Shown: in pieces, positions 4,069 to 55,296 of the stretch
Layout of the letters: each line of letters begins with the position of its first letter
Position numbering within the stretch: position 1 is the stretch's first letter
Notes under the pieces: generated by a model
What the model was told of the DNA's origin: nothing
The model's input: only the letters and a program-made list of their open reading frames with translations
Databases searched by the model: none
DNA from: Escherichia phage vB_EcoS_VAH1
Reading direction: 5' to 3' (one strand)
Length of the DNA: 64,000 nt
Sequence record: MK373792.1
Translations under genes and position numbers: made by a program

Positions 4069-6636
4069 TTGAAAATCGCAGTAGTTGATAAAGCTCTAAA
4101 TAACACTCGTTATGATAAACATTTCCAGCTATACGGCGAGGAAGTTGATGTATTCCATATGTGTAACGAGAAGTTGTCCGGTCGTTTGCTCAAAAAGCAT
4201 ATTACTATAGGGACTCCGGAAAACCCATTTGACCCGAATGATTATGATTTTGTTATACTGGTAGGTGCCGAACCTTTCCTGTACTTTGCAGGTAAGAAAG
4301 GTATTGGTGATTATACTGGTAAACGTGTAGAGTATAATGGATATGCTAACTGGATTGCGAGTATCAGCCCAGCCCAGTTACACTTTAAACCTGAAATGAA
4401 ACCAGTTTTTGATGCAACAGTAGAGAATATCCACGATATTATCAATGGTCGTGAGAAGATTGCAAAAGCTGGTGATTACCGTCCTATTACTGACCCTGAT
4501 GAGGCAGAAGAATATATCAAGATGGTGTATAATATGGTTATCGGACCTGTCGCATTCGACTCCGAAACCTCAGCACTATACTGTCGAGATGGTTATCTAC
4601 TTGGTGTTTCTATATCTCACCAAGAGTATCAGGGTGTATATATCGATTCTGATTGCCTCACAGAGGTTGCAGTATATTACCTCCAGAAAATCCTGGATAG
4701 TGAAAACCACACTATTGTTTTTCACAACTTGAAGTTTGATATGCACTTTTATAAGTACCATCTGGGACTTACTTTTGATAAAGCACATAAAGAACGCAGG
4801 CTCCATGATACCATGTTGCAGCACTATGTTCTAGATGAACGTCGTGGTACTCATGGCTTGAAATCTCTAGCAATGAAGTATACCGATATGGGTGACTATG
4901 ACTTTGAACTAGATAAGTTCAAAGATGATTACTGCAAAGCACATAAAATCAAGAAAGAAGATTTCACCTATGATTTAATTCCGTTTGATATTATGTGGCC
5001 TTACGCTGCGAAAGATACAGATGCCACCATACGTTTGCACAACTTCTTCTTACCAAAGATTGAGAAGAATGAAAAACTTTGCAGTCTGTATTACGATGTT
5101 TTGATGCCTGGTTGCGTATTCTTGCAACGTGTTGAAGATCGTGGTGTACCTATTTCTATCGATCGTTTAAAAGAAGCTCAGTATCAGTTAACCCATAATC
5201 TGAATAAAGCCCGTGAGAAACTGTACACTTATCCAGAAGTTAAACAGCTAGAACAAGATCAGAATGAAGCGTTTAACCCGAACTCTGTTAAGCAGCTGCG
5301 CGTTCTTCTGTTTGATTACGTTGGCTTAACTCCAACAGGTAAACTGACGGATACTGGAGCAGATTCTACAGATGCAGAAGCTCTGAATGAGCTGGCTACG
5401 CAGCATCCAATTGCTAAAACTCTACTAGAGATTCGTAAGCTGACTAAGCTGATCTCTACTTATGTTGAGAAGATTCTACTGAGTATTGATGCAGATGGTT
5501 GCATTCGTACTGGTTTCCATGAACATATGACTACTTCTGGTCGTCTGAGTTCTTCTGGTAAACTGAACCTGCAACAGCTACCTCGTGATGAATCTATTAT
5601 CAAGGGTTGTGTAGTTGCACCACCTGGATACCGTGTAATCGCGTGGGACTTAACAACTGCGGAAGTTTACTATGCTGCTGTTCTATCTGGGGATAGAAAT
5701 ATGCAACAGGTATTTATCAACATGAGAAATGAACCCGATAAATACCCAGACTTCCACTCTAACATCGCCCACATGGTATTTAAATTGCAATGTGAACCTC
5801 GTGATGTTAAGAAGCTGTTCCCAGCTCTACGTCAGGCAGCTAAGGCAATTACCTTTGGTATTTTGTATGGTTCTGGCCCGGCTAAAGTAGCACATTCTGT
5901 TAACGAAGCATTGCTCGAACAAGCAGCCAAAACTGGGGAACCGTTTGTTGAATGTACTGTTGCAGATGCTAAAGAGTACATTGAGACTTACTTTGGTCAA
6001 TTCCCACAGCTTAAGCGTTGGATTGATAAGTGCCACGATCAGATCAAGAATCATGGATTTATCTATAGTCACTTTGGTCGTAAACGTCGTCTGCATAATA
6101 TCCATTCCGAAGACCGTGGTGTTCAGGGTGAAGAAATTCGTTCTGGATTTAACGCAATCATTCAGTCTGCTTCTTCTGATAGTCTCCTTTTAGGTGCTGT
6201 AGATGCAGATAATGAGATCATTTCTCTTGGTTTAGAACAAGAGATGAAGATTGTTATGTTGGTTCATGACTCCGTAGTTGCTATTGTTCGTGAGGATTTG
6301 ATCGACCAATACAATGAAATCCTGATTCGTAATATTCAGAAAGACCGTGGTATCAGTATTCCTGGCTGTCCGATTGGTATTGATTCAGATTCTGAAGCCG
6401 GGGGTTCTCGTGACTATTCTTGTGGTAAGATGAAGAAACAGCACCCATCAATTGCTTGTATTGATGATGATGAATATACTCGTTACGTTAAAGAAATGCT
6501 ACTTGATGCAGATTTCGAGTATAAGAAACTAGCTGCGATGGATAAAGAGCATCCAGACCACAGCAAGTACAAGGATGATAAGTTTATTGCTGTATGTAAA
6601 GATCTGGATAACGTGAAAAGGATTCTCGGTGCTTAA
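4069..6636 (+). CDS. DNA polymerase, family A, with 3'-5' exonuclease domain (T5 DNA polymerase-like)
   Basis: 855 aa; TTG start after RBS AAGAGGA. Exonuclease motif FDSETSAL; polymerase motif B RQAAKAITFGILYGSG; motif C LVHDSV. Confidence 0.95.
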   Translation: MKIAVVDKALNNTRYDKHFQLYGEEVDVFHMCNEKLSGRLLKKHITIGTPENPFDPNDYDFVILVGAEPFLYFAGKKGIGDYTGKRVEYNGYANWIASISPAQLHFKPEMKPVFDATVENIHDIINGREKIAKAGDYRPITDPDEAEEYIKMVYNMVIGPVAFDSETSALYCRDGYLLGVSISHQEYQGVYIDSDCLTEVAVYYLQKILDSENHTIVFHNLKFDMHFYKYHLGLTFDKAHKERRLHDTMLQHYVLDERRGTHGLKSLAMKYTDMGDYDFELDKFKDDYCKAHKIKKEDFTYDLIPFDIMWPYAAKDTDATIRLHNFFLPKIEKNEKLCSLYYDVLMPGCVFLQRVEDRGVPISIDRLKEAQYQLTHNLNKAREKLYTYPEVKQLEQDQNEAFNPNSVKQLRVLLFDYVGLTPTGKLTDTGADSTDAEALNELATQHPIAKTLLEIRKLTKLISTYVEKILLSIDADGCIRTGFHEHMTTSGRLSSSGKLNLQQLPRDESIIKGCVVAPPGYRVIAWDLTTAEVYYAAVLSGDRNMQQVFINMRNEPDKYPDFHSNIAHMVFKLQCEPRDVKKLFPALRQAAKAITFGILYGSGPAKVAHSVNEALLEQAAKTGEPFVECTVADAKEYIETYFGQFPQLKRWIDKCHDQIKNHGFIYSHFGRKRRLHNIHSEDRGVQGEEIRSGFNAIIQSASSDSLLLGAVDADNEIISLGLEQEMKIVMLVHDSVVAIVREDLIDQYNEILIRNIQKDRGISIPGCPIGIDSDSEAGGSRDYSCGKMKKQHPSIACIDDDEYTRYVKEMLLDADFEYKKLAAMDKEHPDHSKYKDDKFIAVCKDLDNVKRILGA

Positions 6637-8976: not shown

Positions 8977-9750
8977 ATGGCTAAGTCTTGGGGCGAAACT
9001 ACTGGCGGTTCTAACGATAAAATCGAATTCCTGAAGTTCAACAACGGTATCACTCATGTTCGTATCGTTTCTGGTGTTCTTCCACGTTATGTCTACTGGC
9101 TGACTAATAAAGAGGGTAGCGTAGCTCCTTTCGAATGTCTCCGTTTTAACCGTGACAAAGAGAGCTTTGTTCGTGGTAAAGCTGATCCGGTTCATGAGAT
9201 GGGCTTCTTTGAGAAAGAGCTGGATAAAGATGGTAATCGCGTTCCGCTGAAACCGAAGAAAAACTATATCGCTTTTGTTATCGACCGTTCTGATAACAAA
9301 CTGAAAGTAATGGAAGTCAAAGCTACTATTCTGAAAGGCATCCAGTCTATCATGAAGCAGTTGAGTCTGGCAACTCCGTTTGATATTGATATTTCTATCG
9401 AGAAAAAAGGTAAAGGTTTCGATACTGAGTATGATGTACAGCAGATTGCTGCTATGCAATTCCAGATTAAGCTGCAAGATCCTAACAGTGCAGAATCTAA
9501 GCAATATGCTGCGGATGTAGATCTGATTGGTGAAGCTATGTGTGATGAAGATGGCGACATCATTAAGTTCGAGAAAGTTCCTTCTCTGGAGCAAACCTAT
9601 CCGGTTCCTACCTATGAAGAGCAGAAAGAAGCAATTCAAGCCTTCATGGAAGGTCGTGAGAATAAAGATGATGATGCCAAATCTGGTAACAGCAATGCTG
9701 GTTCCCAGAAAGGTATTGACCAAGAAGCTGCAAGCGATCTGGATGACTAA
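8977..9750 (+). CDS. putative ssDNA-binding/DNA-binding protein with acidic C-terminal tail
   Basis: Strong RBS AAAGAGGAAA; highly optimal codon usage; acidic C-terminus ...QEAASDLDD; followed by a terminator. Confidence 0.55.
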   Translation: MAKSWGETTGGSNDKIEFLKFNNGITHVRIVSGVLPRYVYWLTNKEGSVAPFECLRFNRDKESFVRGKADPVHEMGFFEKELDKDGNRVPLKPKKNYIAFVIDRSDNKLKVMEVKATILKGIQSIMKQLSLATPFDIDISIEKKGKGFDTEYDVQQIAAMQFQIKLQDPNSAESKQYAADVDLIGEAMCDEDGDIIKFEKVPSLEQTYPVPTYEEQKEAIQAFMEGRENKDDDAKSGNSNAGSQKGIDQEAASDLDD

Positions 9751-11224: not shown

Positions 11225-13043
11225 GACACTAAAATTTAGTAACGTTATGTCTTACGGTAAGGACATCGTAATTCATTTCGATAAGAATCCAGTTACTCAA
11301 CTAATTGGTGGCAATGGGCTAGGGAAATCCACCATCGCTACTGTTATCGAGGAATTGTTTTATAACAAGAACTCACGTGGTATTAAGAAGGATGCTCTAT
11401 TCTCTTGGAATGCCCCTAAGAAAGAATATGATATGCACGCTTATTTCTCGAAAGATGATGATGAGTATGAGCTGCATAAAGTAGTTAAATCAACTGCTAA
11501 AGTAACGTTGATTAAGAATGGGGAAGATATTAGTGGACATACGGCAACCCAAACATATAAAATGATTGAAGAGATTATGGGCGGTGACTTTCAAACGTTC
11601 ACCAAACTGATTTATCAATCAGTGGGTTCCAACCTAGATTTTCTAAAAGCAACAGATGCAACACGTAAGGCTTTTCTTGTCAACTTGTTTAATCAAGAAC
11701 AATACAAAGAAATGTCGGAAACTATTAAGGCTGACCGTAAAGAAATAGCAAATACCTTAAATAATTTGCAGGGCCAAATGGCTGTAATTACGAAAATCCT
11801 TAATGGAAAAAATAATCTAGGAACTTTGCAGGAACCTATAGAAGTACCGGAGTTTGATGAAGAGCCATTAGCACAAGAACTTACTGAATCGAAAATTAAG
11901 GCGGCATTAGCCAAGTCTCAAGAGGCTAATATTACTAAGTTGCGTAATTTGGACAAAGCTGTACAAGTTGCCGAACAATCTTTCGAACCTTTCAAAAATT
12001 TGCCCGCGCCCACCGACCAAAGTGAAGAGATCTCGAGTGTTACGCGTGACCTAACGATTGTGACCTCACGTGCGAGCGAAGTTAAGAAACGTTATCAGAA
12101 GTTCAAGCAAGAGGCTTCAAATACTGAATGCCCTACTTGTGGCACTCATCTGGATACAACTGCTGCTCAAAAAGCAATGGATATGGCTAGAATAGAATAT
12201 GATCCTCTGTTCAAAGAGAAGCAATCTCTTGAAGCTAAGCTAGAACAGTTGAAGAAAGAACAACTTGAGTACGTTGCGTATACTAGAGCAAAGGATGCTC
12301 TTGATAAAGCGGTGGTAGCTAGAGACGAGTTCAAAAATTCAATGAGTGATGCTTCTTTTGAAGAACTCAATGTGCAAATCCTACAGGTGCAAATACGACA
12401 ATTAGAACAGGCAATCGCTGATGGACGTTCTAAGGTTGCAATTGCCAAAGAGCATAATGCAAATGTCGAATTAGCCAATGCAAAATATAAAGCAAAGCTA
12501 GAACAGATTGAGAAAGCTGAAGCAGAAATGTCTGAGATTACTTCCAAACTGAATGGAGTATCTGAAGCTGTTGCTGATCTCGATATTCTGATTGCTGCAT
12601 TGAAAAATCTGGTGGGATATAAGCTAGAACATAGTGTGAAAGTATTTGAAGAACTAATTAATAAATACCTTTCCATTATGACTGGTGGTAAATTCGCACT
12701 TGGATTCGAACTTGATGAAACGAAGTTACAAGTAGTAATCTTCAATGATGGAAACCGTACCAGTATGGAGAACTGCTCTACTGGTCAGCAAAGTCGAATT
12801 AATCTAGCAACCCTGTTAGCTATTCGAATGCTGTTAACATCTATTAGTAAAGTTAATATTAATCTTCTATTCCTTGATGAAGTAATTAGCTTTATTGATA
12901 CGAAAGGACTTGATACTCTCGTTGAATTATTAAATGAGGAAGAAAGTCTAAATTCTATCATTGTTTCTCATGGGCATACGCATCCATTAGCTCATAAGAT
13001 TACTGTCAAAAAAGATGCAGAAGGATTTTCCTACTTAGAATAA
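11205..13043 (+). CDS. SbcC/Rad50-like ATPase
   Basis: Walker A GGNGLGKST; long coiled coil with CPTCG zinc-hook-like motif; signature CSTGQQSRINLATLLA; Walker B LLFLDEV. Start set at ATG 11205, overlapping the sbcD-like stop. Confidence 0.85.
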   Translation: MSKITIKTLKFSNVMSYGKDIVIHFDKNPVTQLIGGNGLGKSTIATVIEELFYNKNSRGIKKDALFSWNAPKKEYDMHAYFSKDDDEYELHKVVKSTAKVTLIKNGEDISGHTATQTYKMIEEIMGGDFQTFTKLIYQSVGSNLDFLKATDATRKAFLVNLFNQEQYKEMSETIKADRKEIANTLNNLQGQMAVITKILNGKNNLGTLQEPIEVPEFDEEPLAQELTESKIKAALAKSQEANITKLRNLDKAVQVAEQSFEPFKNLPAPTDQSEEISSVTRDLTIVTSRASEVKKRYQKFKQEASNTECPTCGTHLDTTAAQKAMDMARIEYDPLFKEKQSLEAKLEQLKKEQLEYVAYTRAKDALDKAVVARDEFKNSMSDASFEELNVQILQVQIRQLEQAIADGRSKVAIAKEHNANVELANAKYKAKLEQIEKAEAEMSEITSKLNGVSEAVADLDILIAALKNLVGYKLEHSVKVFEELINKYLSIMTGGKFALGFELDETKLQVVIFNDGNRTSMENCSTGQQSRINLATLLAIRMLLTSISKVNINLLFLDEVISFIDTKGLDTLVELLNEEESLNSIIVSHGHTHPLAHKITVKKDAEGFSYLE

Positions 13044-14847: not shown

Positions 14848-15073
14848 TTTTGTTGATCCTAATATGGTAGGTATTGATACTAATATGTCAACTTATCAGA
14901 CTAAAACTACAGAACCAGAAACATTTGTGCTAAAAACAGACAAAGAAGGTAATGTTACTTTCTGGGATCCTGAAGGTTTTGTAGAACTTTGTACTAATAC
15001 AGATAATGAGCAGTTAAAATTACTACTAACTATTTATAATCTTGGTATTATAGAAGGTTGTAGAAAAGAATAA
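14810..15073 (+). CDS. hypothetical small protein
   Basis: ORF overlapping the dUTPase end; stops just before the bidirectional terminator. Confidence 0.35.
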   Translation: MEKVDLEAQEASNFVDPNMVGIDTNMSTYQTKTTEPETFVLKTDKEGNVTFWDPEGFVELCTNTDNEQLKLLLTIYNLGIIEGCRKE

Positions 15074-42716: not shown

Positions 42717-43451
42717 TTACGCAACTTTTAATTTCTCAATATACTGTTGCGGGCTGCAACTATATTCTGCGCGTTCTTCTTCAGTCATACCTTCCCAACA
42801 TAATTGCAAGCGATCGGCTAGGAACTGATAATCATTATCATCCTCAAGAGATTCGTCAATAAAGGTTTCACCTATCAATGTGACACCGATTGATAGAATA
42901 TCATTAACGGCTTGCGCGTCCAGCGTTTTAAATCCGTATGATGCCGCCGCTGCCAATACTCCCTTATGATCGTCGATCATCGTGAAATCAGCGTTCGGAT
43001 ATAGCTGTTTAAATAGCTCAAAGTAATGACTTTTATATATAGCGTCCTTACTGTGGTATATTTCGCTAACCTTATCAGCTTCAAAATATTTGTGAAGCGT
43101 ATCGCGGGAAAATACACGGATATTACTATTTCCACGCCCTCGCAGTCCTTGTTTGCGCAGGTAATAATAATCTGACTTGCTCATCAGTCGAGCGGTACAA
43201 ATAACGTTTAACGTGTTGGCGTCATTCATGCACTGGCGCATATATGTAACAAGCGGCAATAGTGTATCTTGCATTATTAAATCATGTTTGCAGGCTTCAT
43301 TTTTATACTTATTTAAATCTAAATTGCCCTCGCTATCAAAGCAAGGCGCTACGCGATGGAAAGAATTGATGATTGTTCCGTCCAGATCCCAAATCATGAC
43401 GCGGGAAATATGCGGGAAATTACGGGTAATATTCGTTTTAACTTGATTCAT
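42717..43451 (-). CDS. dmp: 5'-deoxyribonucleotidase, HAD-superfamily (T5 dmp-like)
   Basis: HAD motif I IWDLDGTI; 244 aa; adjacent to the A1/A2-like genes. Confidence 0.75.
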   Translation of the reverse strand: MNQVKTNITRNFPHISRVMIWDLDGTIINSFHRVAPCFDSEGNLDLNKYKNEACKHDLIMQDTLLPLVTYMRQCMNDANTLNVICTARLMSKSDYYYLRKQGLRGRGNSNIRVFSRDTLHKYFEADKVSEIYHSKDAIYKSHYFELFKQLYPNADFTMIDDHKGVLAAAASYGFKTLDAQAVNDILSIGVTLIGETFIDESLEDDNDYQFLADRLQLCWEGMTEEERAEYSCSPQQYIEKLKVA

Positions 43452-43996: not shown

Positions 43997-45661
43997 TTAC
44001 GAGAAAAATTTACCATTTTTAAAGTCGATCAAGGTGCGTTGACCGTTTGCATAGGTAATAACATGCGTTTGTGTCCAGCTTGACGCGCCAACGTTATAGC
44101 CCATATCAAGGGAACCAGACACGCCAGCGGTATAAACGCCGCCGTAGATGCTGGCGGTGTGAGTGTGCCCCGTGTTTAATTTGCCCAATTTCTTAAACTG
44201 TTTTGGATTTCCACGGCTCCCGTTAATGCCGTTGTGACCATGTACACCGCACTCAATGCCTGCAATCTTGAAAGATTGATCAGTCGTTAGGAAAATTGCG
44301 TTAAACTCACAACCTGCAACCTTGCGCAGCGCATAATCTAGCACGTTGAAGGTGTCATCTTTTTCTGCAATAGCTCCGTAAATCGCAGCATTAAGGCGGT
44401 GATACAGTTCCGCGTTGGCTGGGTCGTCTTTAATGTTGGCGTTACGATCATCCAGCCAACGTGATAGCGCCAGATCGTGATTAGATTCAACAATGATTGT
44501 TTGACTAAAATCACGTTCCATCGATTCCAGCACGCGCCCCGTATCGATAAGATCATCCAGAACTTTATCACGTCCGGCTGCATATTGTTTTGCTAGGAAT
44601 ACACCGGACGCACGATTATGATGATTGCGCGATGTAAAATCATGCACGTCATGGATAAACTGATATTTTGGTTTAAGAATATCAAGCAAGCTATTTTCGC
44701 CAGCCCATGACGCAGCGGCGCAATCGTCATCTAATTTTTCGGCGTGTATGTCACCGTATTGTAAACCTAAAACATGCCCCGATGTTTCATAGCATCCTGC
44801 GGGAGTAGCGCAAACATTCAGATCATAAAACACGCCGCTTTCGTCCATCGTTTCAAGCTGGCGCACAAAAAACTCACCGTCTTCGTCGAACTCAACAATA
44901 AGCGCACCGAAGTTATGCAGCGCCTCGGCCTTTTGTCCTGCTTTCTGCTGGATGTAATTTTTTAGCGTCGCCGTGCCGGTTGAATACATACGGCGTACTA
45001 CTTCACCTTTTAAAGCTGGAACGCTTTCGGCGGTGATTTTAGCGTGACCAATTGCCAGACCTTCAAGATTAAGCGCGGTTGCAGTTTCAGCGAATCCAGA
45101 AAGCGGATAATCTGCGGTGGGCAAAACATTAATTTCAGCCATGAAAGCAAAGCGGCGATTGTTTAAAAACACGTTTTTATTGCAGATATATTTGTCAAAC
45201 GCGGAATCATATTTGATTCCGTCAGCACCTTCCCCATTTTGAAAACCGTTTTTATTATAAATATACTTGCTAACCAGCAAATCAGCGCCAATAAATTGGG
45301 CATATTGTTCAAGCGAGGCTAAAAAGTTTTTATGCGGGAAAGTATTATTCTGAATCGATGTAATAATAAAGCGTTTACCTTGTTTTACTTCCCAGCTTTC
45401 CACCGTGCTAGAAATAACTCCAGCGGCTTCAGGGCGGTCATCGTTTTTTATGGCTTTTGCTACTTTCGCCGCTTTTGGTTTCGCTGGTTTATTTGCTTCC
45501 AACCAGTCACAAATCGCGGTCGAGTGTTTTGTAGTATCATAGACCGCTTTTGAAATATCGTCGCAGACTTCCAGTTTAGTAGCGCGCAGACGTTTACCGT
45601 AGAAATTGAAATCAGCGGCCATTTTCAGGATAACGGTTTGTTTTTCTGCGGAAATAATCAT
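43997..45661 (-). CDS. A1: pre-early A1-like protein with calcineurin-like metallophosphoesterase motifs
   Basis: 554 aa; metallophosphoesterase-like motifs GDIH, ESNHD, GHTHT; higher GC than the surrounding genome. Confidence 0.7.
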   Translation of the reverse strand: MIISAEKQTVILKMAADFNFYGKRLRATKLEVCDDISKAVYDTTKHSTAICDWLEANKPAKPKAAKVAKAIKNDDRPEAAGVISSTVESWEVKQGKRFIITSIQNNTFPHKNFLASLEQYAQFIGADLLVSKYIYNKNGFQNGEGADGIKYDSAFDKYICNKNVFLNNRRFAFMAEINVLPTADYPLSGFAETATALNLEGLAIGHAKITAESVPALKGEVVRRMYSTGTATLKNYIQQKAGQKAEALHNFGALIVEFDEDGEFFVRQLETMDESGVFYDLNVCATPAGCYETSGHVLGLQYGDIHAEKLDDDCAAASWAGENSLLDILKPKYQFIHDVHDFTSRNHHNRASGVFLAKQYAAGRDKVLDDLIDTGRVLESMERDFSQTIIVESNHDLALSRWLDDRNANIKDDPANAELYHRLNAAIYGAIAEKDDTFNVLDYALRKVAGCEFNAIFLTTDQSFKIAGIECGVHGHNGINGSRGNPKQFKKLGKLNTGHTHTASIYGGVYTAGVSGSLDMGYNVGASSWTQTHVITYANGQRTLIDFKNGKFFS

Positions 45662-46011: not shown

Positions 46012-46428
46012 TTATTCACCTGCGGCCTGTTTTACTTCATCGGCAACGCCCAATAGTTGCGCCACGGCGTCCAGCGTTTCCAATTTTGCGCTTTCCAGTG
46101 ATGCCAGATCGTCAGCGTCTTTGATAATGCCGGAATCGATGGCATGTTTTGCAATGACGCGTACATAATGCGCCTTGCGAATTGAACTGCCGCCGCCAAC
46201 TTTGCGCGGCTTATCGCTTTTCTGATACGCTTTTGCGCTGGTCAATTTTGAGCGAACAGACACGGGAGAAGCCGCGCCAACTGTTTTTGCAATCTCTTTC
46301 AGGCCGTCGCTGTTAGCGAACTCCAAGCCGTTTTCATTGATGAGCTGTTGATACATGGTAACAGCCTGTTGGGTGTTTTCTTCATTCCATGCGAATTTTG
46401 CGGATTTTTCGGTTTTAACGTTAGCCAT
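46012..46428 (-). CDS. hypothetical pre-early protein
   Basis: 138-aa ORF with RBS GGAG; preceded by an operator-like palindrome. Confidence 0.5.
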   Translation of the reverse strand: MANVKTEKSAKFAWNEENTQQAVTMYQQLINENGLEFANSDGLKEIAKTVGAASPVSVRSKLTSAKAYQKSDKPRKVGGGSSIRKAHYVRVIAKHAIDSGIIKDADDLASLESAKLETLDAVAQLLGVADEVKQAAGE

Positions 46429-47214: not shown

Positions 47215-47715
47215 ATCTGCGATTCCTTATATTATATAAGTTTTCCGCCGATAGACTTTAAGATATACCCAATTTTTAAAGAGCGCGGCGGTAAACTTCC
47301 CCGCCGTTGTAGTCCGTTGCCGTCCTACGAGATAAATAATAGGTGATTCCCAAAAATGGCGCAACCTTATTTTTGTAAAGAAACGTAAAGAAAGCAAATA
47401 ATCGCAGGGTGTCCGGCGATTGCCTAAGTTTAAAGGAAACGGGCGCGCGAATACCATAAAACCGAGCAGATAGGCAAGTAATTTTTTCATTTATATTTGC
47501 TTTGCCCTACTTGACAAATCTTAAAAAGCTCGTGGTAGCGATAAACGAGGGTAGGCAATGCAATGGCATACCTGAAAATTTTACCGCTTTCTAGGGCGTT
47601 TTAGGCGGCTCATTTTCGATTTAACAAATATTTAACAAAAGCAAAATTGAAAAATAGTTTGAAAAGGTATTGACTTTTTAAAATCAAGACTAAACGAGTT
47701 ATTTTATAAAATTAA

Positions 47716-48234
47716 TTAATTGACAATTCCAAATTCAGCTTTTTTAGTTTCTACCCATAATAATAACTCTTGTAAATCATAACCTGATTTACTAACACTT
47801 TTGTTACTAGTAGGATCTTTAACTATAGCGCGCAAATAGTTTCTTCCGTTATTATCAACTCTAGAACCATTATAATAGATATGCTTAGGCAACTTATTAG
47901 CACGCTTATAATCTTTCTTGTTATTCATATTCTGCTTATGATCTACTAAGCGAAGATTATTAATGTTATTATTAGCACGGTTACGATCATTATGATCGAT
48001 TGTTAGATTGCTATCAATCTCACCATTAAATAATACCCATATTATTCTATGCACTGCGTATTGTTCGCCTGCTAACTTTACTCGATAGTAACCTGTGTTA
48101 CTATAATGCCCTGCAATATCACCCACCTTACTATTACCTTTCTGTACTTTCCACCTTAGAAATGATGGGGATGTTTCATCATAATAAAAGTTATCATTAG
48201 CAAGCGAATAATCTATATCTTTAAATAGACCCAT
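47716..48234 (-). CDS. HNH homing endonuclease
   Basis: YAVHRIIWVLFNGEIDSNLTIDHNDRNRANNNINNLRL HNH motif; AP2-like C-terminal domain. Confidence 0.75.
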   Translation of the reverse strand: MGLFKDIDYSLANDNFYYDETSPSFLRWKVQKGNSKVGDIAGHYSNTGYYRVKLAGEQYAVHRIIWVLFNGEIDSNLTIDHNDRNRANNNINNLRLVDHKQNMNNKKDYKRANKLPKHIYYNGSRVDNNGRNYLRAIVKDPTSNKSVSKSGYDLQELLLWVETKKAEFGIVN

Positions 48235-48425
48235 TGTTATAGTTTCCTTATGTTATTAGTTTAATCTCTATTATATTATATCAAAATCATTAGCAGACTA
48301 CCTAATGAGTTTTTCAGGTTTAATTAGCAGACTCATAATCACTCTAAAAACCTATTAGCCAACTAACTATATTTTATTATATAATAACAACATAAATTAG
48401 TTAGTGAGAAACACTATCATTTAAG

Positions 48426-48533
48426 TTATCCACAGGTTTATACATTTTGTAAATTTGATTGACACAATAGGAAGGCTTTATAGCACTTTTACACAGACTT
48501 ATCCACAGGTTATTCCACTGTATAAATATACAG
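48426..48533. promoter_or_regulatory. DnaA-box pair plus 16-bp palindrome module (copy 1)
   Basis: TTATCCACA at 48426-48434 and 48499-48507; palindrome CTGTATAAATATACAG at 48518-48533. Confidence 0.55.
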
Positions 48534-48799
48534 GGTAAAGGGGAAGCATATTATAATGATGCCCAAAATAAGCGGCCTAAAACGCTTTCTAACGAGCTAA
48601 ATGCGGTGGGGTAATATTAAAGTAAAGCCTTCACCCGTCGCCCTGGTGGCTTCACCGTGTTTTGCTCTTTACTGTACCGCTGCGCGGTTAGCATAAAACT
48701 AGGCGTTAGGCAAGGAAAATAAAAAGGTAAAATAATATTTGCCTATGCTAGAAAATTACCTTTACCATTCACTCACCGATTAACGAGGGAGGCCAACAA

Positions 48800-49777
48800 A
48801 TGAGGCTGTATAAACCAGATAACGCAACCGTCTTAAAAGGTGCGCTGCGTAACCTGCTGGACGGTAGCAGAACAACCAGCATCAAACATTTTGTTAACAA
48901 GGCCGAAGATATTCACCAAAACTTTTTTGATGATTTCGATGCCTATGATATGAGTAGTTTTTTGCAACTGTATAAGCAAGGGGCAACGATTATCTTGTAT
49001 AATCGAGATAATCACTTGCTTACTAGCAGGGGGCCGGATACTGATTTTATAATCGTAAAAGGTAGCATAGTAAAAGCCTATGATACTGGGGCGGGCTTAG
49101 AAGTTTTTTCAATAGAAAATTATGAAGCCAACCCCAATGATCTTTATGACGTAGAAAATTTTCTCGATTCATTTTGGCGTTATTTATCAGTTGGCTGGAA
49201 TCGGTCAATTGGTGACGGGTATCGTCTGGCGGCTGTAATGGCTTTTGATGACGATGGCAATTTTTTGCTACCACGGGAGCTATACCCATATGTATATGAT
49301 GGCGACATCGAAAGCGCGGGCTTTTCTTTCTGGAAGGAGGAGGATCAGCCTATTGACAACACGGAAAAACATGCTGTAAATTCTAACACTCAAACCATTG
49401 AAAACAAAGGAAAAAATGCCATGACCAAGATCGCTAATATCGTTGCCGCTAATAAGTCCGCCGTTGTAAATGCTGCAAAACTGGAAGCGGGTAAAATTGC
49501 ACTGACTCAAATTACGAAAGTAGCGGCTAAAAAAGCACCGTTTATTATCAAGGGTTATATTGATACGCCGATTGGTCGGGTAGTGATTGCCAACCTGCTG
49601 AGCGTAGCGGTTGACCAGTACGCCCCAAGTAACCAAAAGGCGAAAGCGGTAGCGGATGCAGCTATGGAAGCGGCTATGTTAGAAATGGTGCAATCTTTTA
49701 ACATTGCTGAGATGATTGATGAAATGGTGAAAGGTATTGATATTTCTACTTTTACCGTTAACACCGAAAACGAGTAA
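48800..49777 (+). CDS. hypothetical protein (pre-early region)
   Basis: 325-aa ORF with RBS GAGGGAGG; no recognisable motifs. Confidence 0.55.
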   Translation: MRLYKPDNATVLKGALRNLLDGSRTTSIKHFVNKAEDIHQNFFDDFDAYDMSSFLQLYKQGATIILYNRDNHLLTSRGPDTDFIIVKGSIVKAYDTGAGLEVFSIENYEANPNDLYDVENFLDSFWRYLSVGWNRSIGDGYRLAAVMAFDDDGNFLLPRELYPYVYDGDIESAGFSFWKEEDQPIDNTEKHAVNSNTQTIENKGKNAMTKIANIVAANKSAVVNAAKLEAGKIALTQITKVAAKKAPFIIKGYIDTPIGRVVIANLLSVAVDQYAPSNQKAKAVADAAMEAAMLEMVQSFNIAEMIDEMVKGIDISTFTVNTENE

Positions 49778-49897
49778 TAGTTAACCTAGTGTAAAGTTTT
49801 GTAAAGGTCGCCATAATCGGCGGCCTTTTTTGTTATAATGCCTTTACACCGTTCGAGGACGGTTGAAAATTTTCCCAAAAAATTTTGGAGGCTTAAA

Positions 49898-50128
49898 ATG
49901 GTTGCATATTCTTCTTCTGACGCTCTTTTCACTGGAAAAGGCTGGGTATCAAATCGCTGGATCATTCAAGAAATGGTGCAAGAATACGGCATTGCTAAAA
50001 CTTACACTACCATTCAGGCGCTTTATGATAATGATCAAATTGATCAGCAAACAGCGGGCTTTTTGCTGGATACCCTGAAGGCGGAACATTGCACTAAAAA
50101 ACAAGCTGCAAAAATTATTTTAATGTAA
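49898..50128 (+). CDS. hypothetical small protein
   Basis: RBS TGGAGG before ATG 49898; the ORF-track start at 49838 is an upstream in-frame Met without an RBS. Confidence 0.45.
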   Translation: MVAYSSSDALFTGKGWVSNRWIIQEMVQEYGIAKTYTTIQALYDNDQIDQQTAGFLLDTLKAEHCTKKQAAKIILM

Positions 50129-50177
50129 GTAATAACGGGGGATATACAGTATCCCCCACTAACTAGGGGAAATAAAA

Positions 50178-50324
50178 ATGGTTATTTTTCGGTCAATTCT
50201 AGCGGGTATCTTGGGCGCTATTTTATCCCTTTTTGCAATAGCTTTCGACGTTCACGCGGTTACTATTGGCGCGGGTATCGCTGTTTTTTCTTATTTGCTG
50301 GGCTGCATGAGTAAAGGAGAATAA
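50178..50324 (+). CDS. small membrane protein (48 aa)
   Basis: RBS AGGGGA; two hydrophobic helices; preceded by hairpin GGGGGATA-TACAG-TATCCCCC. Confidence 0.4.
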   Translation: MVIFRSILAGILGAILSLFAIAFDVHAVTIGAGIAVFSYLLGCMSKGE

Positions 50325-50326
50325 AA

Positions 50327-50539
50327 ATGATTCGTAACGTTTCCCTTGCCCGTTCCAAAGGCTTTAAGCTGGTGGACGTTAACACGTTCGAACGGGAAGA
50401 CTGTAAAATCGAATATATAGCACGGAATAAAAACGCCTTTCGTGTTACAGAAAAGAAATTTGATAAGCGTGGCAACGTGATAGCTGAAAAGGTTAAATAT
50501 TTTGCCACCTTTTACGCTGCATTTCGTGGGGTACTATGA
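50327..50539 (+). CDS. hypothetical small protein
   Basis: 70-aa ORF tightly packed after the previous gene. Confidence 0.45.
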   Translation: MIRNVSLARSKGFKLVDVNTFEREDCKIEYIARNKNAFRVTEKKFDKRGNVIAEKVKYFATFYAAFRGVL

Positions 50540-50766
50540 AAAGCGTTGTTGTTATTATCCTTGCAATGGTTGGCGGTTTTACTGCCACCTTATTTAAGAA
50601 TGATCCCCTTTTACTGGGGATTTTTATGCTTTTATCTGGTTATCTGATTGGGAGGCTAACAAATGATTCAACAAATTAAAAGGGCGTTCCAATATTGGGG
50701 CGTCCTGCCTTCAATCGGTTTTATTCTGATAATCATTAGTCAGCTAATGATTATAGGCGGAACTAT

Positions 50767-51126
50767 TTGGGAGCTATGCAAATGGTAATTTATGAGGGCA
50801 ATCGCTTTGTTACTAATTGCCGTCCGGCATTGTTAGCAAACTACTTAAACCAGCTTTCACCTGAATATAAGGGCGTCATTAATATTTACGAGGGAAAAGC
50901 GCATTATAAAATCAATGCGGTCGTTGCCCGTGAACTAGCGTTTCAATTTTTAACCTTTGCATCGTGTGATATTCAGGTCATGGGTGAGGCATTAATTGCA
51001 GAAAATGAAGACGATTTTATTAATATTTTTCGCAAGGTGTGCACCGAGCGCCTGATCATGAAAGGCGCATATATTCAATCAACGGCGGATAGTATTGAAA
51101 CAGCGTTTCGAAAGGTGGCGCAATGA
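50767..51126 (+). CDS. hypothetical protein
   Basis: 119-aa ORF. Confidence 0.5.
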   Translation: MGAMQMVIYEGNRFVTNCRPALLANYLNQLSPEYKGVINIYEGKAHYKINAVVARELAFQFLTFASCDIQVMGEALIAENEDDFINIFRKVCTERLIMKGAYIQSTADSIETAFRKVAQ

Positions 51127-51227
51127 GATTATATATTTTCATTGGTAATGTTAAGGCTGCAAATGATTCCGCCGGGGGCGATAATGTTCGCCACTATTGG
51201 CAAAATTATATTTACTAGGGCGTTATT

Positions 51228-51422
51228 ATGAGCAATAAAATTATTGTAACCAAAACTACCACAATGGTTGACGTTTTTTATGTGCCCGATACGCTGGAAA
51301 ACCGGCAAGCGGTCGAGCGTGGCGAGTATGATAAAGTGATTTATGATCACGATGGTTATTATAAGCATTTGGTGGATTCCTACGGGGAGGAGGAAAAAAT
51401 CACGCATCAATTACCGGACTGA
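51228..51422 (+). CDS. hypothetical small protein
   Basis: 64-aa ORF with an acidic C-terminus. Confidence 0.45.
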   Translation: MSNKIIVTKTTTMVDVFYVPDTLENRQAVERGEYDKVIYDHDGYYKHLVDSYGEEEKITHQLPD

Positions 51423-51661
51423 CAACAAGCGGGGCGCAACTATCAGGGAGTGCCCCCAATTCTCAAATGAGAATGATTCTCATTTGACCGCGCCCGCGAT
51501 GGTTAGCCTGCTAATGATTAGGGTGTTACGTGTCGCCTTGTGTGATAGTTAGCGAGCTAACTAATTTTCAAGCCTCCTCCAATTTTGCCCTTGTTTTAGT
51601 ATCCCCATCAAAATAAAACGCGTTAGAATGCGATTCAGGGCGTTTTAGGCCTATATTAGAA

Positions 51662-51789
51662 TTATCCACTGTGTAGGAATACTGTATAAATATACAGTAG
51701 GATAAGCTGTGGATAAGTCTGTTGATAACGCTTCAAAATGGCTAGAATTCTGTCAAGGCAAATCGTGCTGTTGATAAGTCTGTGGATAA
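51662..51789. promoter_or_regulatory. cluster of five DnaA-box-like sites plus 16-bp palindrome (copy 2)
   Basis: TTATCCACT (51662-51670), TGTGGATAA (51708-51716, 51781-51789), TGTTGATAA (51720-51728, 51769-51777); palindrome CTGTATAAATATACAG at 51682-51697. Confidence 0.6.
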
Positions 51790-51814
51790 CTTAAATAACA
51801 GTGTTTCTCACTTC

Positions 51815-51980
51815 CATTCTTAAATGAGAATCATTATCATTCGTATTCCACTTTTTAAATGAGAATCATTTCACTTTTTAAATGAGAATCATTTCACTTT
51901 TTAAATGAGAATCATTCCCTTTCTTAAATGCGAATCATTATCATTCGCATTTCACTTTTTAAATGAGATTGATTCTCATT
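51815..51980. repeat. tandem array of about six ~21-bp repeats (consensus TCACTTTTTAAATGAGAATCATT)
   Basis: Direct reading: repeated TTAAATGAGAATCATT cores with sub-repeats CATTATCATTCGCATT. Confidence 0.75.
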
Positions 51981-51999
51981 ATCATTCGCATTCAGGCGA

Positions 52000-52017
52000 G
52001 CAGGGCAATTGCCCTGC
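52000..52017. other. perfect 18-bp palindrome GCAGGGCAATTGCCCTGC
   Basis: Perfect dyad, followed by a short T-run (GCTTTTG). Confidence 0.5.
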
Positions 52018-52022
52018 GCTTT

Positions 52023-52803
52023 TGTGCAAATCCGACATTTGCTCCAAGGGTTACGTGCTGGCGTGTATGTGCGAATCCGACAATTTTTGGTAGTGTGCAA
52101 ATCCGACCCGAAAAATTTTTATAGTGTGCGAATCCGACAATGAATTTTCCCAAAAACTCCAGCAATCACGAACTGCGTTCGAATCCTGTGGGATATGTGC
52201 AAATCCGACACGGTTTTTCTAGGATTAAGATGTGCGAATCCTACAAGATTTTTGTGACTTCGATGAGAGGGTGTGTGATTGTATAGGTTTGAGGAGAAGT
52301 TGAGAGAGCGAGAAAAATTTGGGGAGCTAGAAGGATGTGGGCGCAGGATTGGTGCGAAGCACCTGATTTGCGGGGATTTTGGGGAAGAGTTGAGATAATT
52401 TGGGGAAATTTGAGATAGGTGCAGAAAAAGTAAAATTTTATTAGCAAAATGGGGCAAAATAGCTTGACAAGTGAAAATTCTTGTGGCTCTAAAAACTCAG
52501 GCAATCATGGGCCTTCGGCCCGAAATAATGCTGCTATTTTCAGGAGAGTAAGAGTTCCTAAAAACTTAGGCGTTTGTGCAAATCCGACCATAAATTTCTA
52601 GAAATGCAGTGTGCAAATCCGACAGTAATTTCTGGAAATGTGTTTTCAAAAAATGTCTCCTAGAAATAACCGCCCTCCCTATAACCGCCCTGTATTAAAC
52701 CGCCTAGTATATGTAACGTTGGAGAGAAACTGCCCTAGAATATGTGCAAATCCGATGAATATTTTTGTGCTTATCAATTTCCTAGAATATGTGCAAATCC
52801 GAT
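52023..52803 (+). repeat. dispersed array of ten 15-bp iterons, consensus TGTGC(A/G)AATCCGACA
   Basis: Copies at 52023, 52068, 52095, 52125, 52196, 52231, 52575, 52610, 52743 and 52790, all in the same orientation. The last two lie in a duplicated ~35-bp unit; TGTGCTTATCAATTTCCTAGAA is also duplicated. Confidence 0.75.
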
Positions 52804-54702: not shown

Positions 54703-55296
54703 TTAATCCTTTTTACTTTCGTTAATAACAGCTCCCAGTGCTTCCATAATTGTATCTTCTAGACTTCCATGTTTATCAGGATTGCTTAAGTGAATAGTAT
54801 ATGAGTTCCTAGAAACTCCAGAGTCCACAGGTGCTACGCTTTTCATGTCAGATTCAAAAGCTTCTTGAGTATGTTTCAACTGTGCAGAAGGTCCATAATC
54901 TTCACCAAACTTATATGACTGCGTACTACTTACCACACCCCCACAAGGAACATTGTGCAAATCCGATGATTTATTTAGCATTGAGATTGTCCCTGACTGC
55001 CACGGATCTCTAATAGTCACAGGAGTACTAGGACGGTTCACCTCAGTCTTCACGAGTTTATAGCCAGCATCTATTAATGCGTTAATAAGGTTATCAGCTG
55101 GAATGCGAGCCTTGCCAAAAATCTCACGAGCGTTGTTGAGCCTACCTTCAAAACCTTTACATGCTCTAATATTAGTGTGTGCAAAGGTTAGCTTCATAGA
55201 TTTGAATTGTACAGTAGCAGTTAAATCTTTAAAGCTATAATCCCATGTGTTCAGTTCATGGTCTGGTACTACTTGAATAGGTTGTTGTGTAAACAT
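54703..55296 (-). CDS. hypothetical protein
   Basis: 197-aa ORF. Confidence 0.5.
   Translation of the reverse strand: MFTQQPIQVVPDHELNTWDYSFKDLTATVQFKSMKLTFAHTNIRACKGFEGRLNNAREIFGKARIPADNLINALIDAGYKLVKTEVNRPSTPVTIRDPWQSGTISMLNKSSDLHNVPCGGVVSSTQSYKFGEDYGPSAQLKHTQEAFESDMKSVAPVDSGVSRNSYTIHLSNPDKHGSLEDTIMEALGAVINESKKD

Follow-up and report, generated by a model that had tools for sequence, protein, structure and literature searches.

Inverted modules of DnaA boxes and LexA-operator-like palindromes in the pre-early region of a T5-like phage

Introduction

The two-step DNA transfer of bacteriophage T5 has been known since the 1960s; the cis-acting signal that stops the transfer has never been defined at the nucleotide level. 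Here we analyse a pair of modules in Escherichia phage vB_EcoS_VAH1 (sequence record MK373792.1), each composed of double DnaA boxes and a palindrome that resembles the operator of LexA, the SOS repressor of the host. The 64,000 nucleotides analysed are referred to as the window.

The window is that of a T5-like phage. Positions 47400-52400 align with hundreds of Tequintavirus and Epseptimavirus genomes, approximately 5-10 kb into their terminal repeat, and the genes A1 (43997-45661, minus strand) and A2 (46012-46428, minus strand) are located a little left of the modules. Alignment to the terminal repeat, together with the adjoining A1 and A2, identifies the region as pre-early, first-step-transfer (FST) DNA.

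The repeat pair and its DnaA boxes are already known from T5, in which they are called IRC/IRD and IRD'/IRC', and the observation of duplicated modules is a rediscovery. What is added here is the order of the motifs across the family and their helical phasing, a predicted LexA-type operator as the best-conserved element, Fur-type neighbours, and double DnaA boxes of the in vivo type. With these, a vague region of 'repeats and palindromes' becomes a short list of host proteins and of point mutations that are testable with existing strains and T5 engineering.

Architecture of the locus

The original prediction, made by reading the sequence alone, described two related modules bracketing a block of plus-strand open reading frames (ORFs) that lies between minus-strand genes. 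The block is as claimed (Table 1), every motif is found where it had been placed, and the homology between the modules is real and approximately 190 bp long, extending beyond the motifs that they share. The modules were correctly taken to be duplicated, but their orientation was overlooked: they are inverted, not direct, repeats. Pairwise alignment, which had been proposed as a check, shows this clearly. The reverse complement of 48380-48610 aligns with 51620-51835 with a score of 58, well above that of shuffled sequences (10.3 +/- 1.5, maximum 17), and the aligned extent is 48403-48594 against 51621-51812 (184 positions, 73% identity); the same-strand alignment scores 20, which corresponds to the near-palindrome itself. 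A repeat finder delimits two pairs of inverted arms, 48493-48533 pairing with 51682-51722 over 41 nt (88% complementary) and 48403-48441 pairing with 51774-51812 over 39 nt (90%).

The modules face each other 3.2 kb apart. Each consists, in order, of two to three GCGWTNNAGR units, the LexA-like palindrome, a 10-bp interval and two double DnaA boxes on either side of a 51-bp spacer, with AGTGTTTCTCACT as the final motif.

The 14-mer AGGGCGTTTTAGGC is present at 47593-47606 and 51637-51650, as claimed, and the two copies do enclose the ORF of an HNH homing endonuclease (47716-48234). The true partner of the 47593 copy is, however, not the one at 51637 but a third copy that had been missed, inverted and with two mismatches, at 48575-48588, directly after module 1, where it is the counterpart of the 51637-51650 copy. 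The regions 47580-47616 and 48565-48601, which hold 14-mer copies, pair as an inverted repeat of 37 nt. A motif with a 10-bp period, GCGWTNNAGR, is present as two to three tandem units at three places, and the 14-mer is its last unit. In the window, the 14-mer has three matches at up to two mismatches against 0.35 expected, and the tandem GCGWTNNAGR pattern has five against 0.22. In the Vibrio phages Thalassa and PG07, the related AGAGCGTTTTAGAGGC abuts a LexA-like, half-degenerate palindrome (ATGTATAAATATACAG), so this motif is likewise conserved across the family.

Table 1. Features of the duplicated modules and their surroundings, in window positions
Feature	Position	Strand	Remarks
T5 'inverted repeat B' (IRB) homologue	47580-47616	+	First 14-mer; two GCGWTNNAGR units, 47586-47605
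HNH homing endonuclease (hegG-like)	47716-48234	-	Pfam HNH_3, PF13392, E 1.5e-15; between IRB and module 1
Module 1 (T5 IRC-spacer-IRD and IRB')	48403-48594	-	Inverted copy of module 2; IRC 48403-48441; spacer 48442-48492 (51 bp); IRD 48493-48533
Double DnaA box (TTATCCACA ggt TTATACATT)	48426-48446	+	Motif scan
Double DnaA box (TTTTACACA gac TTATCCACA)	48487-48507	+	0 mismatches to TTWTNCACA-N3-TTWTNCACA
LexA-operator-like palindrome CACTGTATAAATATACAGGG	48516-48535		16/20 to consensus TACTGTATATATATACAGTA; core CTGT-N8-ACAG 48518-48533
T5 'inverted repeat B-prime' (IRB') homologue	48565-48601	-	Inverted 14-mer; two GCGWTNNAGR units, 48576-48595
Pre-early gene block	48800-51422	+	Eight ORFs, rightward
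Gene 011 homologue, DUF7566	48800-49777	+	First ORF of block
Terminator-like hairpin	49803-49828		Within block
Homologue of Ung-dependent nickase T5.015	50327-50539	+	Block ORF
Other block ORFs	49838-50128, 50178-50324, 50536-50679, 50663-50788, 50767-51126, 51228-51422	+	Small proteins
Fur-box-like perfect palindrome (TGAGAATGATTCTCA at 51468-51482)	51466-51485		Upstream of module 2
GCGWTNNAGR units before IRD' in module 2	51620-51649		Three units; second 14-mer (51637-51650) included
Module 2 (T5 palD/IRD'-spacer-IRC')	51621-51812	+	By homology to T5 annotation; IRD' 51682-51722; spacer 51723-51773 (51 bp); IRC' 51774-51812
LexA-operator-like palindrome TACTGTATAAATATACAGTA (T5 'palindrome D')	51680-51699		19/20 to consensus TACTGTATATATATACAGTA
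Double DnaA box (TGTGGATAA gtc TGTTGATAA on + strand)	51708-51728	-	10 nt past LexA-like box
Double DnaA box (TGTTGATAA gtc TGTGGATAA on + strand)	51769-51789	-	Motif scan
Fur-box-like repeat array (T5 DRC/DRE, palE-I)	51814-51993	+	7-1-7 matches at 51825-51839, 51929-51943, 51964-51978
Hairpin GCAGGGCAATTGCCCTGC, T5 palindrome J homologue	52000-52017	+	T5 record: major 7.9% single-strand nick here
Ten copies of TGTGCRAATCCGA (T5 'DRD')	52023-52802	+	Context of injection-stop region, outside duplicated modules

Correspondence with the T5 repeats

Both modules are the conserved T5-like inverted repeats IRC-spacer-IRD and IRD'-spacer-IRC' of the pre-early terminal-repeat region. In a four-way alignment with positions 6000-6230 and 9270-9490 of T5, they are near-identical, almost base for base, to their T5 counterparts. 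The T5 record AY587007 (Wang et al. 2005; see also Heusterspreute et al. 1987) annotates IRC (6022-6060) and IRD (6112-6152), which correspond to module 1, and IRD' (9332-9372) and IRC' (9424-9462), which correspond to module 2. In the same record, IRB (5285-5310) and IRB' (6184-6209) represent the 14-mer family, palindrome D is TACTGTATAAATATACAGTA, and DRB, DRC and DRD repeats, palindrome J and the 7.9% nick are annotated further. These T5 repeats are the same element as that described here, with the same order, position and paired DnaA boxes: one copy is located between the A2-side genes and gene 011, and the other after the last pre-early gene, before the DRC/DRD repeats. Only strain-level substitutions distinguish the elements of the two phages; for example, TGTGGATAA is found here where IRD' of T5 has TGGGGATAA, and retention of TGTGGATAA gives this phage the full set of eight DnaA boxes. 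A second T5 record, AY692264, names the region that matches approximately 51.5-52.5 kb of the window the 'injection stop signal'; module 2 falls inside it and opens this long non-coding region.

In a comparison of 25 T5-like phages, Davison (2020; bioRxiv 10.1101/866236) described the 131-bp IRC-spacer-IRD / IRD'-spacer-IRC' pair, with a constant 52-bp spacer and eight DnaA boxes paired 3 bp apart, proposed that membrane-bound DnaA holds the DNA when first-step transfer ends, and argued against an origin function. In the literature, too, a cis-acting part of the repeats in ending first-step transfer is a hypothesis. By the annotated T5 boundaries the spacer here is 51 bp long, as in T5, where Davison counts 52. 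The literature searched contained no link of T5 or its relatives to LexA or Fur boxes, and Davison (2020) names neither, although an earlier mention in the works of 1987 and 2005 and in a 2015 review by Davison is possible; the match of the palindrome to LexA operators and that of the neighbouring repeats to Fur operators appear to be new.

Double DnaA boxes

Exact copies of TTATCCACA are located at 48426 and 48499 on the plus strand and at 51708 and 51781 on the minus strand, all four copies of the 64 kb being inside the modules, and DnaA boxes with one mismatch are found at 51662, 51720 and 51769. Eight DnaA or DnaA-like boxes form four double boxes, two per module. Double boxes with a 3-bp gap have six matches in the window against 0.35 expected, and five of these are inside the modules.

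By chromatin immunoprecipitation sequencing and mutagenesis, E. coli DnaA in vivo depends on pairs of this geometry, in the same orientation and with a 3-bp gap (PMC11317965). The E. coli double boxes (oriC low-affinity pairs, DARS2, purH, polA and mioC; Stringer, Fitzgerald and Wade 2024, PMC11317965) consist, like those described here, of two 9-mers in the same orientation 3 bp apart, and typically combine one consensus box with one that has one or two mismatches, as is also the case here. In contrast to the E. coli sites, the phage DNA carries two pairs per module, 51 bp apart and phased 10 bp from the LexA-like box, and there is no sign of an origin or promoter role at the phage modules.

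Conservation across the family

The comparison set consists of T5, phiR201 (Yersinia), My1 (Pectobacterium), GZ8 (Klebsiella), Proteus phage 1 and the Vibrio phages D415, Thalassa and PG07. Including the present phage, the nine cover eight classified genera of the Demerecviridae and one unclassified Vibrio phage. Among the matches listed for the degenerate double-DnaA-box pattern in IMG/VR viral contigs, most were unrelated contigs. Comparison phages were picked from GenBank via a search with the A1 protein, and the T5 stretch was compared without A1; A1 identity to this phage ranges from approximately 91% (phiR201) down to 32-35% (Vibrio phages).

The repeat pair is conserved in all nine sampled phages, including the Vibrio and Proteus phages. 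In all comparison phages, the LexA-like box is followed after approximately 10 bp by a double DnaA box, beyond which come a spacer and further DnaA boxes. In the seven phages in which the LexA boxes of both modules were identified, these are 2.9-4.0 kb apart, and module 1 alone reaches the Vibrio and Pectobacterium phages at the DNA level. The DnaA and LexA boxes are constant across lineages, while the DRD repeats, which do not resemble host sites, get replaced: the DRD repeat is kept in the enterobacterial members T5, phiR201, My1 and GZ8, and other repeats are found instead in the Proteus and Vibrio phages. Such a pattern would be expected of constant motifs bound by host proteins that keep their specificity across the Gammaproteobacteria.

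A Rhizobium phage with A1 was considered for testing whether the LexA motif switches with the host; it belongs to the Autographiviridae, carries A1 in a replication module and has no T5-like architecture, and the comparison is therefore not valid.

The LexA-operator-like palindrome

The original prediction took the 16-mer CTGTATAAATATACAG to be a mere palindrome, identical in the two modules. Copies are indeed present at 48518-48533 and 51682-51697, but the palindrome is imperfect (14/16 self-complementary), and its sequence fits a LexA-type operator, matching the consensus at 19 of 20 positions in module 2 and at 16 of 20 in module 1. CTGT-N8-ACAG has four matches in the window against 0.64 expected, with an AT-rich centre only in the two module copies.

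Conservation follows the same pattern. When 16 module copies from the nine phages are aligned, the sole invariant columns of the module are CTGT and three positions of the ATACAG half, and variants of the palindrome elsewhere (ATCCAG, AACCAG) retain CTG...CAG. The CTG/CAG contact triplets are thus selectively conserved in orthologous sites, as would be expected of a LexA operator.

The exact 20-mer TACTGTATAAATATACAGTA is present in 850 E. coli records, and in the three E. coli contexts inspected it is located 20-40 nt upstream of small prophage genes. One of these contexts has the order replication endonuclease, box, small ORF and DinI-like gene, which matches the layout of the LexA-controlled tum locus of phage 186; in another, the box is found before a BRO-N antirepressor operon. 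The palindrome is in this respect similar to the LexA operators of mobile elements (the LexA-repressed p95/tum of phage 186, and the LexA-controlled antirepressors of lambdoid and Gifsy-type prophages), the identical 20-mer being found upstream of small ORFs in such prophage contexts. Unlike prophage operators, the box of this virulent T5-like phage is off any recognisable promoter, occurs twice, in inverted modules, and is linked to DnaA boxes. A promoter scan gave only 9/12 matches overlapping the LexA-like boxes (48527-48554 on the plus strand and 51690-51661 on the minus strand), and the promoter of gene 011 is likely to be located approximately 200 nt from the LexA-like box. By sequence, the palindrome matches a LexA-type operator and is predicted to be one.

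The centre of the palindrome (TATAAATATA) is asymmetric and reads alike on the plus strand in both modules, despite their inverted arms. The same-strand centre is also found in T5, phiR201, My1 and Vibrio phage D415, but not in GZ8, and may reflect either gene conversion limited to the palindrome or chance.

Fur-like repeats and adjoining non-coding DNA

The repeats that flank module 2 on both sides match the Fur consensus GATAATGATAATCATTATC at 14-16 of 19 positions. The 7-1-7 Fur motif TGATAATnATTATCA has nine matches in the window against 0.12 expected, and the repeats score 12-13 out of 14. An exact 19-nt string of the repeats recurs 26 nt upstream of gpmA, a Fur-regulated gene, in some E. 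coli strains. A 25-nt stretch is matched at 92% upstream of an FTR1 iron permease gene, and a similar palindrome is found ahead of module 2 in Vibrio phages PG07 and D415. The phage repeats thus resemble Fur operators in matching both the consensus and the 7-1-7 motif and in having a string in common with the gpmA upstream region, but unlike host Fur operators they form a non-coding array of at least seven copies that governs no iron-related gene, and their core hexamer is mostly GAGAAT, not GATAAT.

Beyond the Fur-like array and the palindrome J hairpin, TGTGCRAATCCGA has 12 matches in the window against 0.10 expected: ten make up the DRD array, one is located at 54954-54966, and one, with a single mismatch, at 12371. 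From its sequence and distribution, the DRD repeat is a candidate for binding by a phage protein, A2 for instance. Scans of 47.0-53.6 kb for Rfam families and tRNAs gave nothing above threshold. A full-consensus sigma-70 promoter (TTGACA, 18 nt, TG, TATAAT; 12/12) is located at 53159-53130 on the minus strand, aimed leftward into the ORF-free DNA of 52.0-52.9 kb.

The bracketed gene block and the HNH insertion

The comparison of gene order that the original prediction had called for shows that the bracketed block varies among T5-like phages and has been inverted at least once in the family. At least 80% of the block is covered in 166 of 518 matching phage records; for module 2 together with the Fur-like array, the figure is 426 of 621. 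The non-coding modules are thus conserved more widely than the genes that they bracket. In T5, the block is dispensable (2026 preprint). In My1, the homologues of gene 011 and p64 that lie between the modules are in reverse order and on the other strand, and the gene 011 homologue is also reversed in GZ8. The bracketed DNA was therefore inverted at some ancient point, an outcome to be expected of recombination between inverted repeats.

This reversal is seen only between genera (My1 and GZ8 against T5). Both orientations were not seen among close relatives, 52 records aligning across the modules and block on one strand, and Pfam and PHROGs scans of seven of the eight block ORFs and of flanking ORFs revealed no recombinase family of the kind that drives invertible segments (Hin/Gin/Cin type).

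The HNH gene has a GC content of 0.30, compared with approximately 0.40-0.46 in the surrounding DNA, and is absent from phiR201 and My1. According to Davison (2020), the HNH insertion splits repeat regions 1 and 2, and most relatives are without it.

A model for the arrest of DNA transfer

Judged by their motifs, the modules may be docking arrays for the host proteins DnaA and LexA, with Fur beside module 2, an interpretation for and against which we see about equal weight. Host DNA-binding proteins that are already in the cell would dock on the entering DNA, DnaA as dimers on the double boxes and LexA as a dimer on the palindrome, and Fur would bind the repeats adjoining module 2. As these proteins pre-exist in the cell, their docking would explain how injection is arrested without phage protein synthesis. 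The nucleoprotein complex, possibly tethered to the membrane by DnaA, in line with Davison's proposal, would serve to mark or hold the FST boundary; the phage-encoded A1 and A2 proteins would then permit second-step transfer, and module 1 would serve as an auxiliary copy.

A more specific proposal is that the injection-stop region is a family-conserved operator array (two near-consensus LexA operators, eight DnaA boxes in four double boxes and at least seven Fur boxes, with a further perfect Fur box approximately 150 bp from the leading DNA end), on which host proteins, and not DNA structure alone, would arrest or hold the first 8% of the genome until released by A1/A2. We regard this proposal as tentative and, on present grounds, unlikely.

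Several points weigh against these interpretations. The literature to June 2026 calls experimental study of these sites lacking and second-step transfer poorly understood, and it is physically unclear how proteins on DNA that is already inside the cell would halt the part that has yet to enter. Module 1 can be dispensed with: the 'type 4' phages of Davison (2020) are without it, and a viable, small-plaque T5 mutant deleted for hegG through gene 017 (2026 preprint) very probably lacks it as well, in which case module 1 is auxiliary, in agreement with the type 4 phages. The LexA-like boxes overlap no convincing promoter, given the 9/12 matches described above, and the conserved palindrome could be the site of a phage DNA-binding dimer, A2. 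T5 also grows on recA strains such as DH5alpha, so RecA-driven cleavage of LexA cannot be required. A route in which A1-driven breakdown of host DNA frees a LexA-held stop via RecA was rejected as a requirement for the same reason, recA strains being routinely used to grow T5.

Alternative explanations

The palindrome and/or the GCGWTNNAGR motif could instead be operators of the phage pre-early protein A2, acting with A1, in which case the likeness to LexA operators would be incidental, or a mimicry by which A2 displaces LexA. A1/A2 would in that case act at the modules to restart transfer, to cut the DNA or close it into a circle, or to turn off the transcription of pre-early genes. A2 accompanies the modules in 8/8 comparison phages, its PHROG family is annotated as a DNA-binding protein, a palindromic site would suit an A2 dimer, and the GCGWTNNAGR motif and the DRD repeats match no recognised host operator. 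However, A2 is only approximately 40% identical between coliphage and Vibrio phage, yet the palindrome stays on the LexA consensus with variants that LexA tolerates, and the identical 20-mer serves prophage loci of the LexA-controlled type. Arrest of injection, moreover, needs no phage protein synthesis, though release does. A likeness of A2 to LexA was sought, and A2 gave no Pfam match, no PDB sequence match and no significant Foldseek match (single-sequence AlphaFold model, pLDDT 77, best E 0.6); the model is all-helical, without a significant fold match, and nothing ties A2 to the palindrome. An A2 operator is in our judgement improbable, though not negligibly so.

Alternatively, the modules could be transcriptional boundary elements, with DnaA-box complexes and tightly bound LexA acting as roadblocks to RNA polymerase that would confine transcription to the block. 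Rightward pre-early transcription would be kept out of the injection-stop region, and the mirror-image modules would show the same face to polymerase leaving in either direction. The inverted arrangement agrees with this, since on its way out of the block, at either end, polymerase encounters the LexA box before the DnaA boxes, and the last pre-early ORF has module 2 just downstream of it. Module 1 of My1 and GZ8 is within a leftward transcription unit rather than at a promoter. According to papers that cite them, Schaefer and Messer (1988/1989) reported that DnaA/dnaA-box complexes block transcribing RNA polymerase. Roadblocks would, however, leave unexplained the exact spacings that are kept family-wide, the Fur-like arrays and the GCGWTNNAGR units, and a hairpin with a T-tract is a cheaper terminator, one of which (palC) is annotated in T5 upstream of its module 2. 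We consider a boundary function doubtful.

The original prediction spoke of a regulatory or origin-like element; a duplicated, putatively cis-acting element rich in DnaA boxes is indeed what is found, but a DnaA-dependent replication origin, or the remnant of one, is very improbable. Each module has four DnaA boxes in closely spaced pairs, as at oriC, and an AT-rich stretch (GC approximately 0.30) is located to the left of module 1. That stretch is, however, the HNH insertion, with no AT-rich element beside module 2, and GC skew tracks the coding strand only. The origins of T5 have been mapped near the genome centre and the replication genes are silent while only FST DNA is inside the cell (Davison 2020), and the dispensability of module 1 counts further against an origin role.

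The other suggestion, a scar of insertion or inversion, was right in that the block between the modules varies and, compared with T5, is inverted in My1, and an HNH homing endonuclease has inserted beside module 1, but functionless leftovers are hardly credible given that the same architecture is found in every phage sampled, with motif order, 10-bp LexA-DnaA spacing and 3-bp box gap kept in 9/9 phages, that DNA similarity of module 1 reaches the Vibrio phages, and that the non-coding modules are better conserved than the genes they flank.

Further Fur-like sites and the limits of the terminal repeat

The window passes from late-region genes into the terminal repeat, with dmp at 42.7 kb, leaves it for early genes at 53.2 kb, and looks like a circularly permuted assembly in which the two terminal repeats are collapsed to one copy (approximately 42.5-42.7 kb and approximately 52.5 kb). 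A perfect 7-1-7 Fur box (TGATAATCATTATCA) is located at 42826-42840, inside the 3' end of dmp (42717-43451, minus strand). It is approximately 150 bp away from the inferred left end of the genome, the end that is first to enter the cell. Fur boxes close to the consensus are found at the same place in phiR201 (position 144 of the stretch, 18/19) and GZ8 (approximately 14858-14882); the box in dmp could reflect protein-coding constraint alone.

The same Fur-like repeats are also present in non-coding DNA (for example AAATGATAATCATTCTCATTT) of the unrelated myoviruses tuntematon, phAPEC8, ESCO5, nepoznato and ZCKP1, which have genomes of approximately 150 kb, and correspond to 51881-51953 of the window. 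In Escherichia phage tuntematon (Phapecoctavirus; 2440-2860), the sole myovirus inspected, the Fur-like repeats are followed by TTTGAGATAA repeats, which correspond to 52390-52420 of the window and resemble the T5 'DRA' repeats near the end of the terminal repeat. At the level of sequence, this sharing suggests either common host-factor sites or horizontal transfer of a non-coding cassette.

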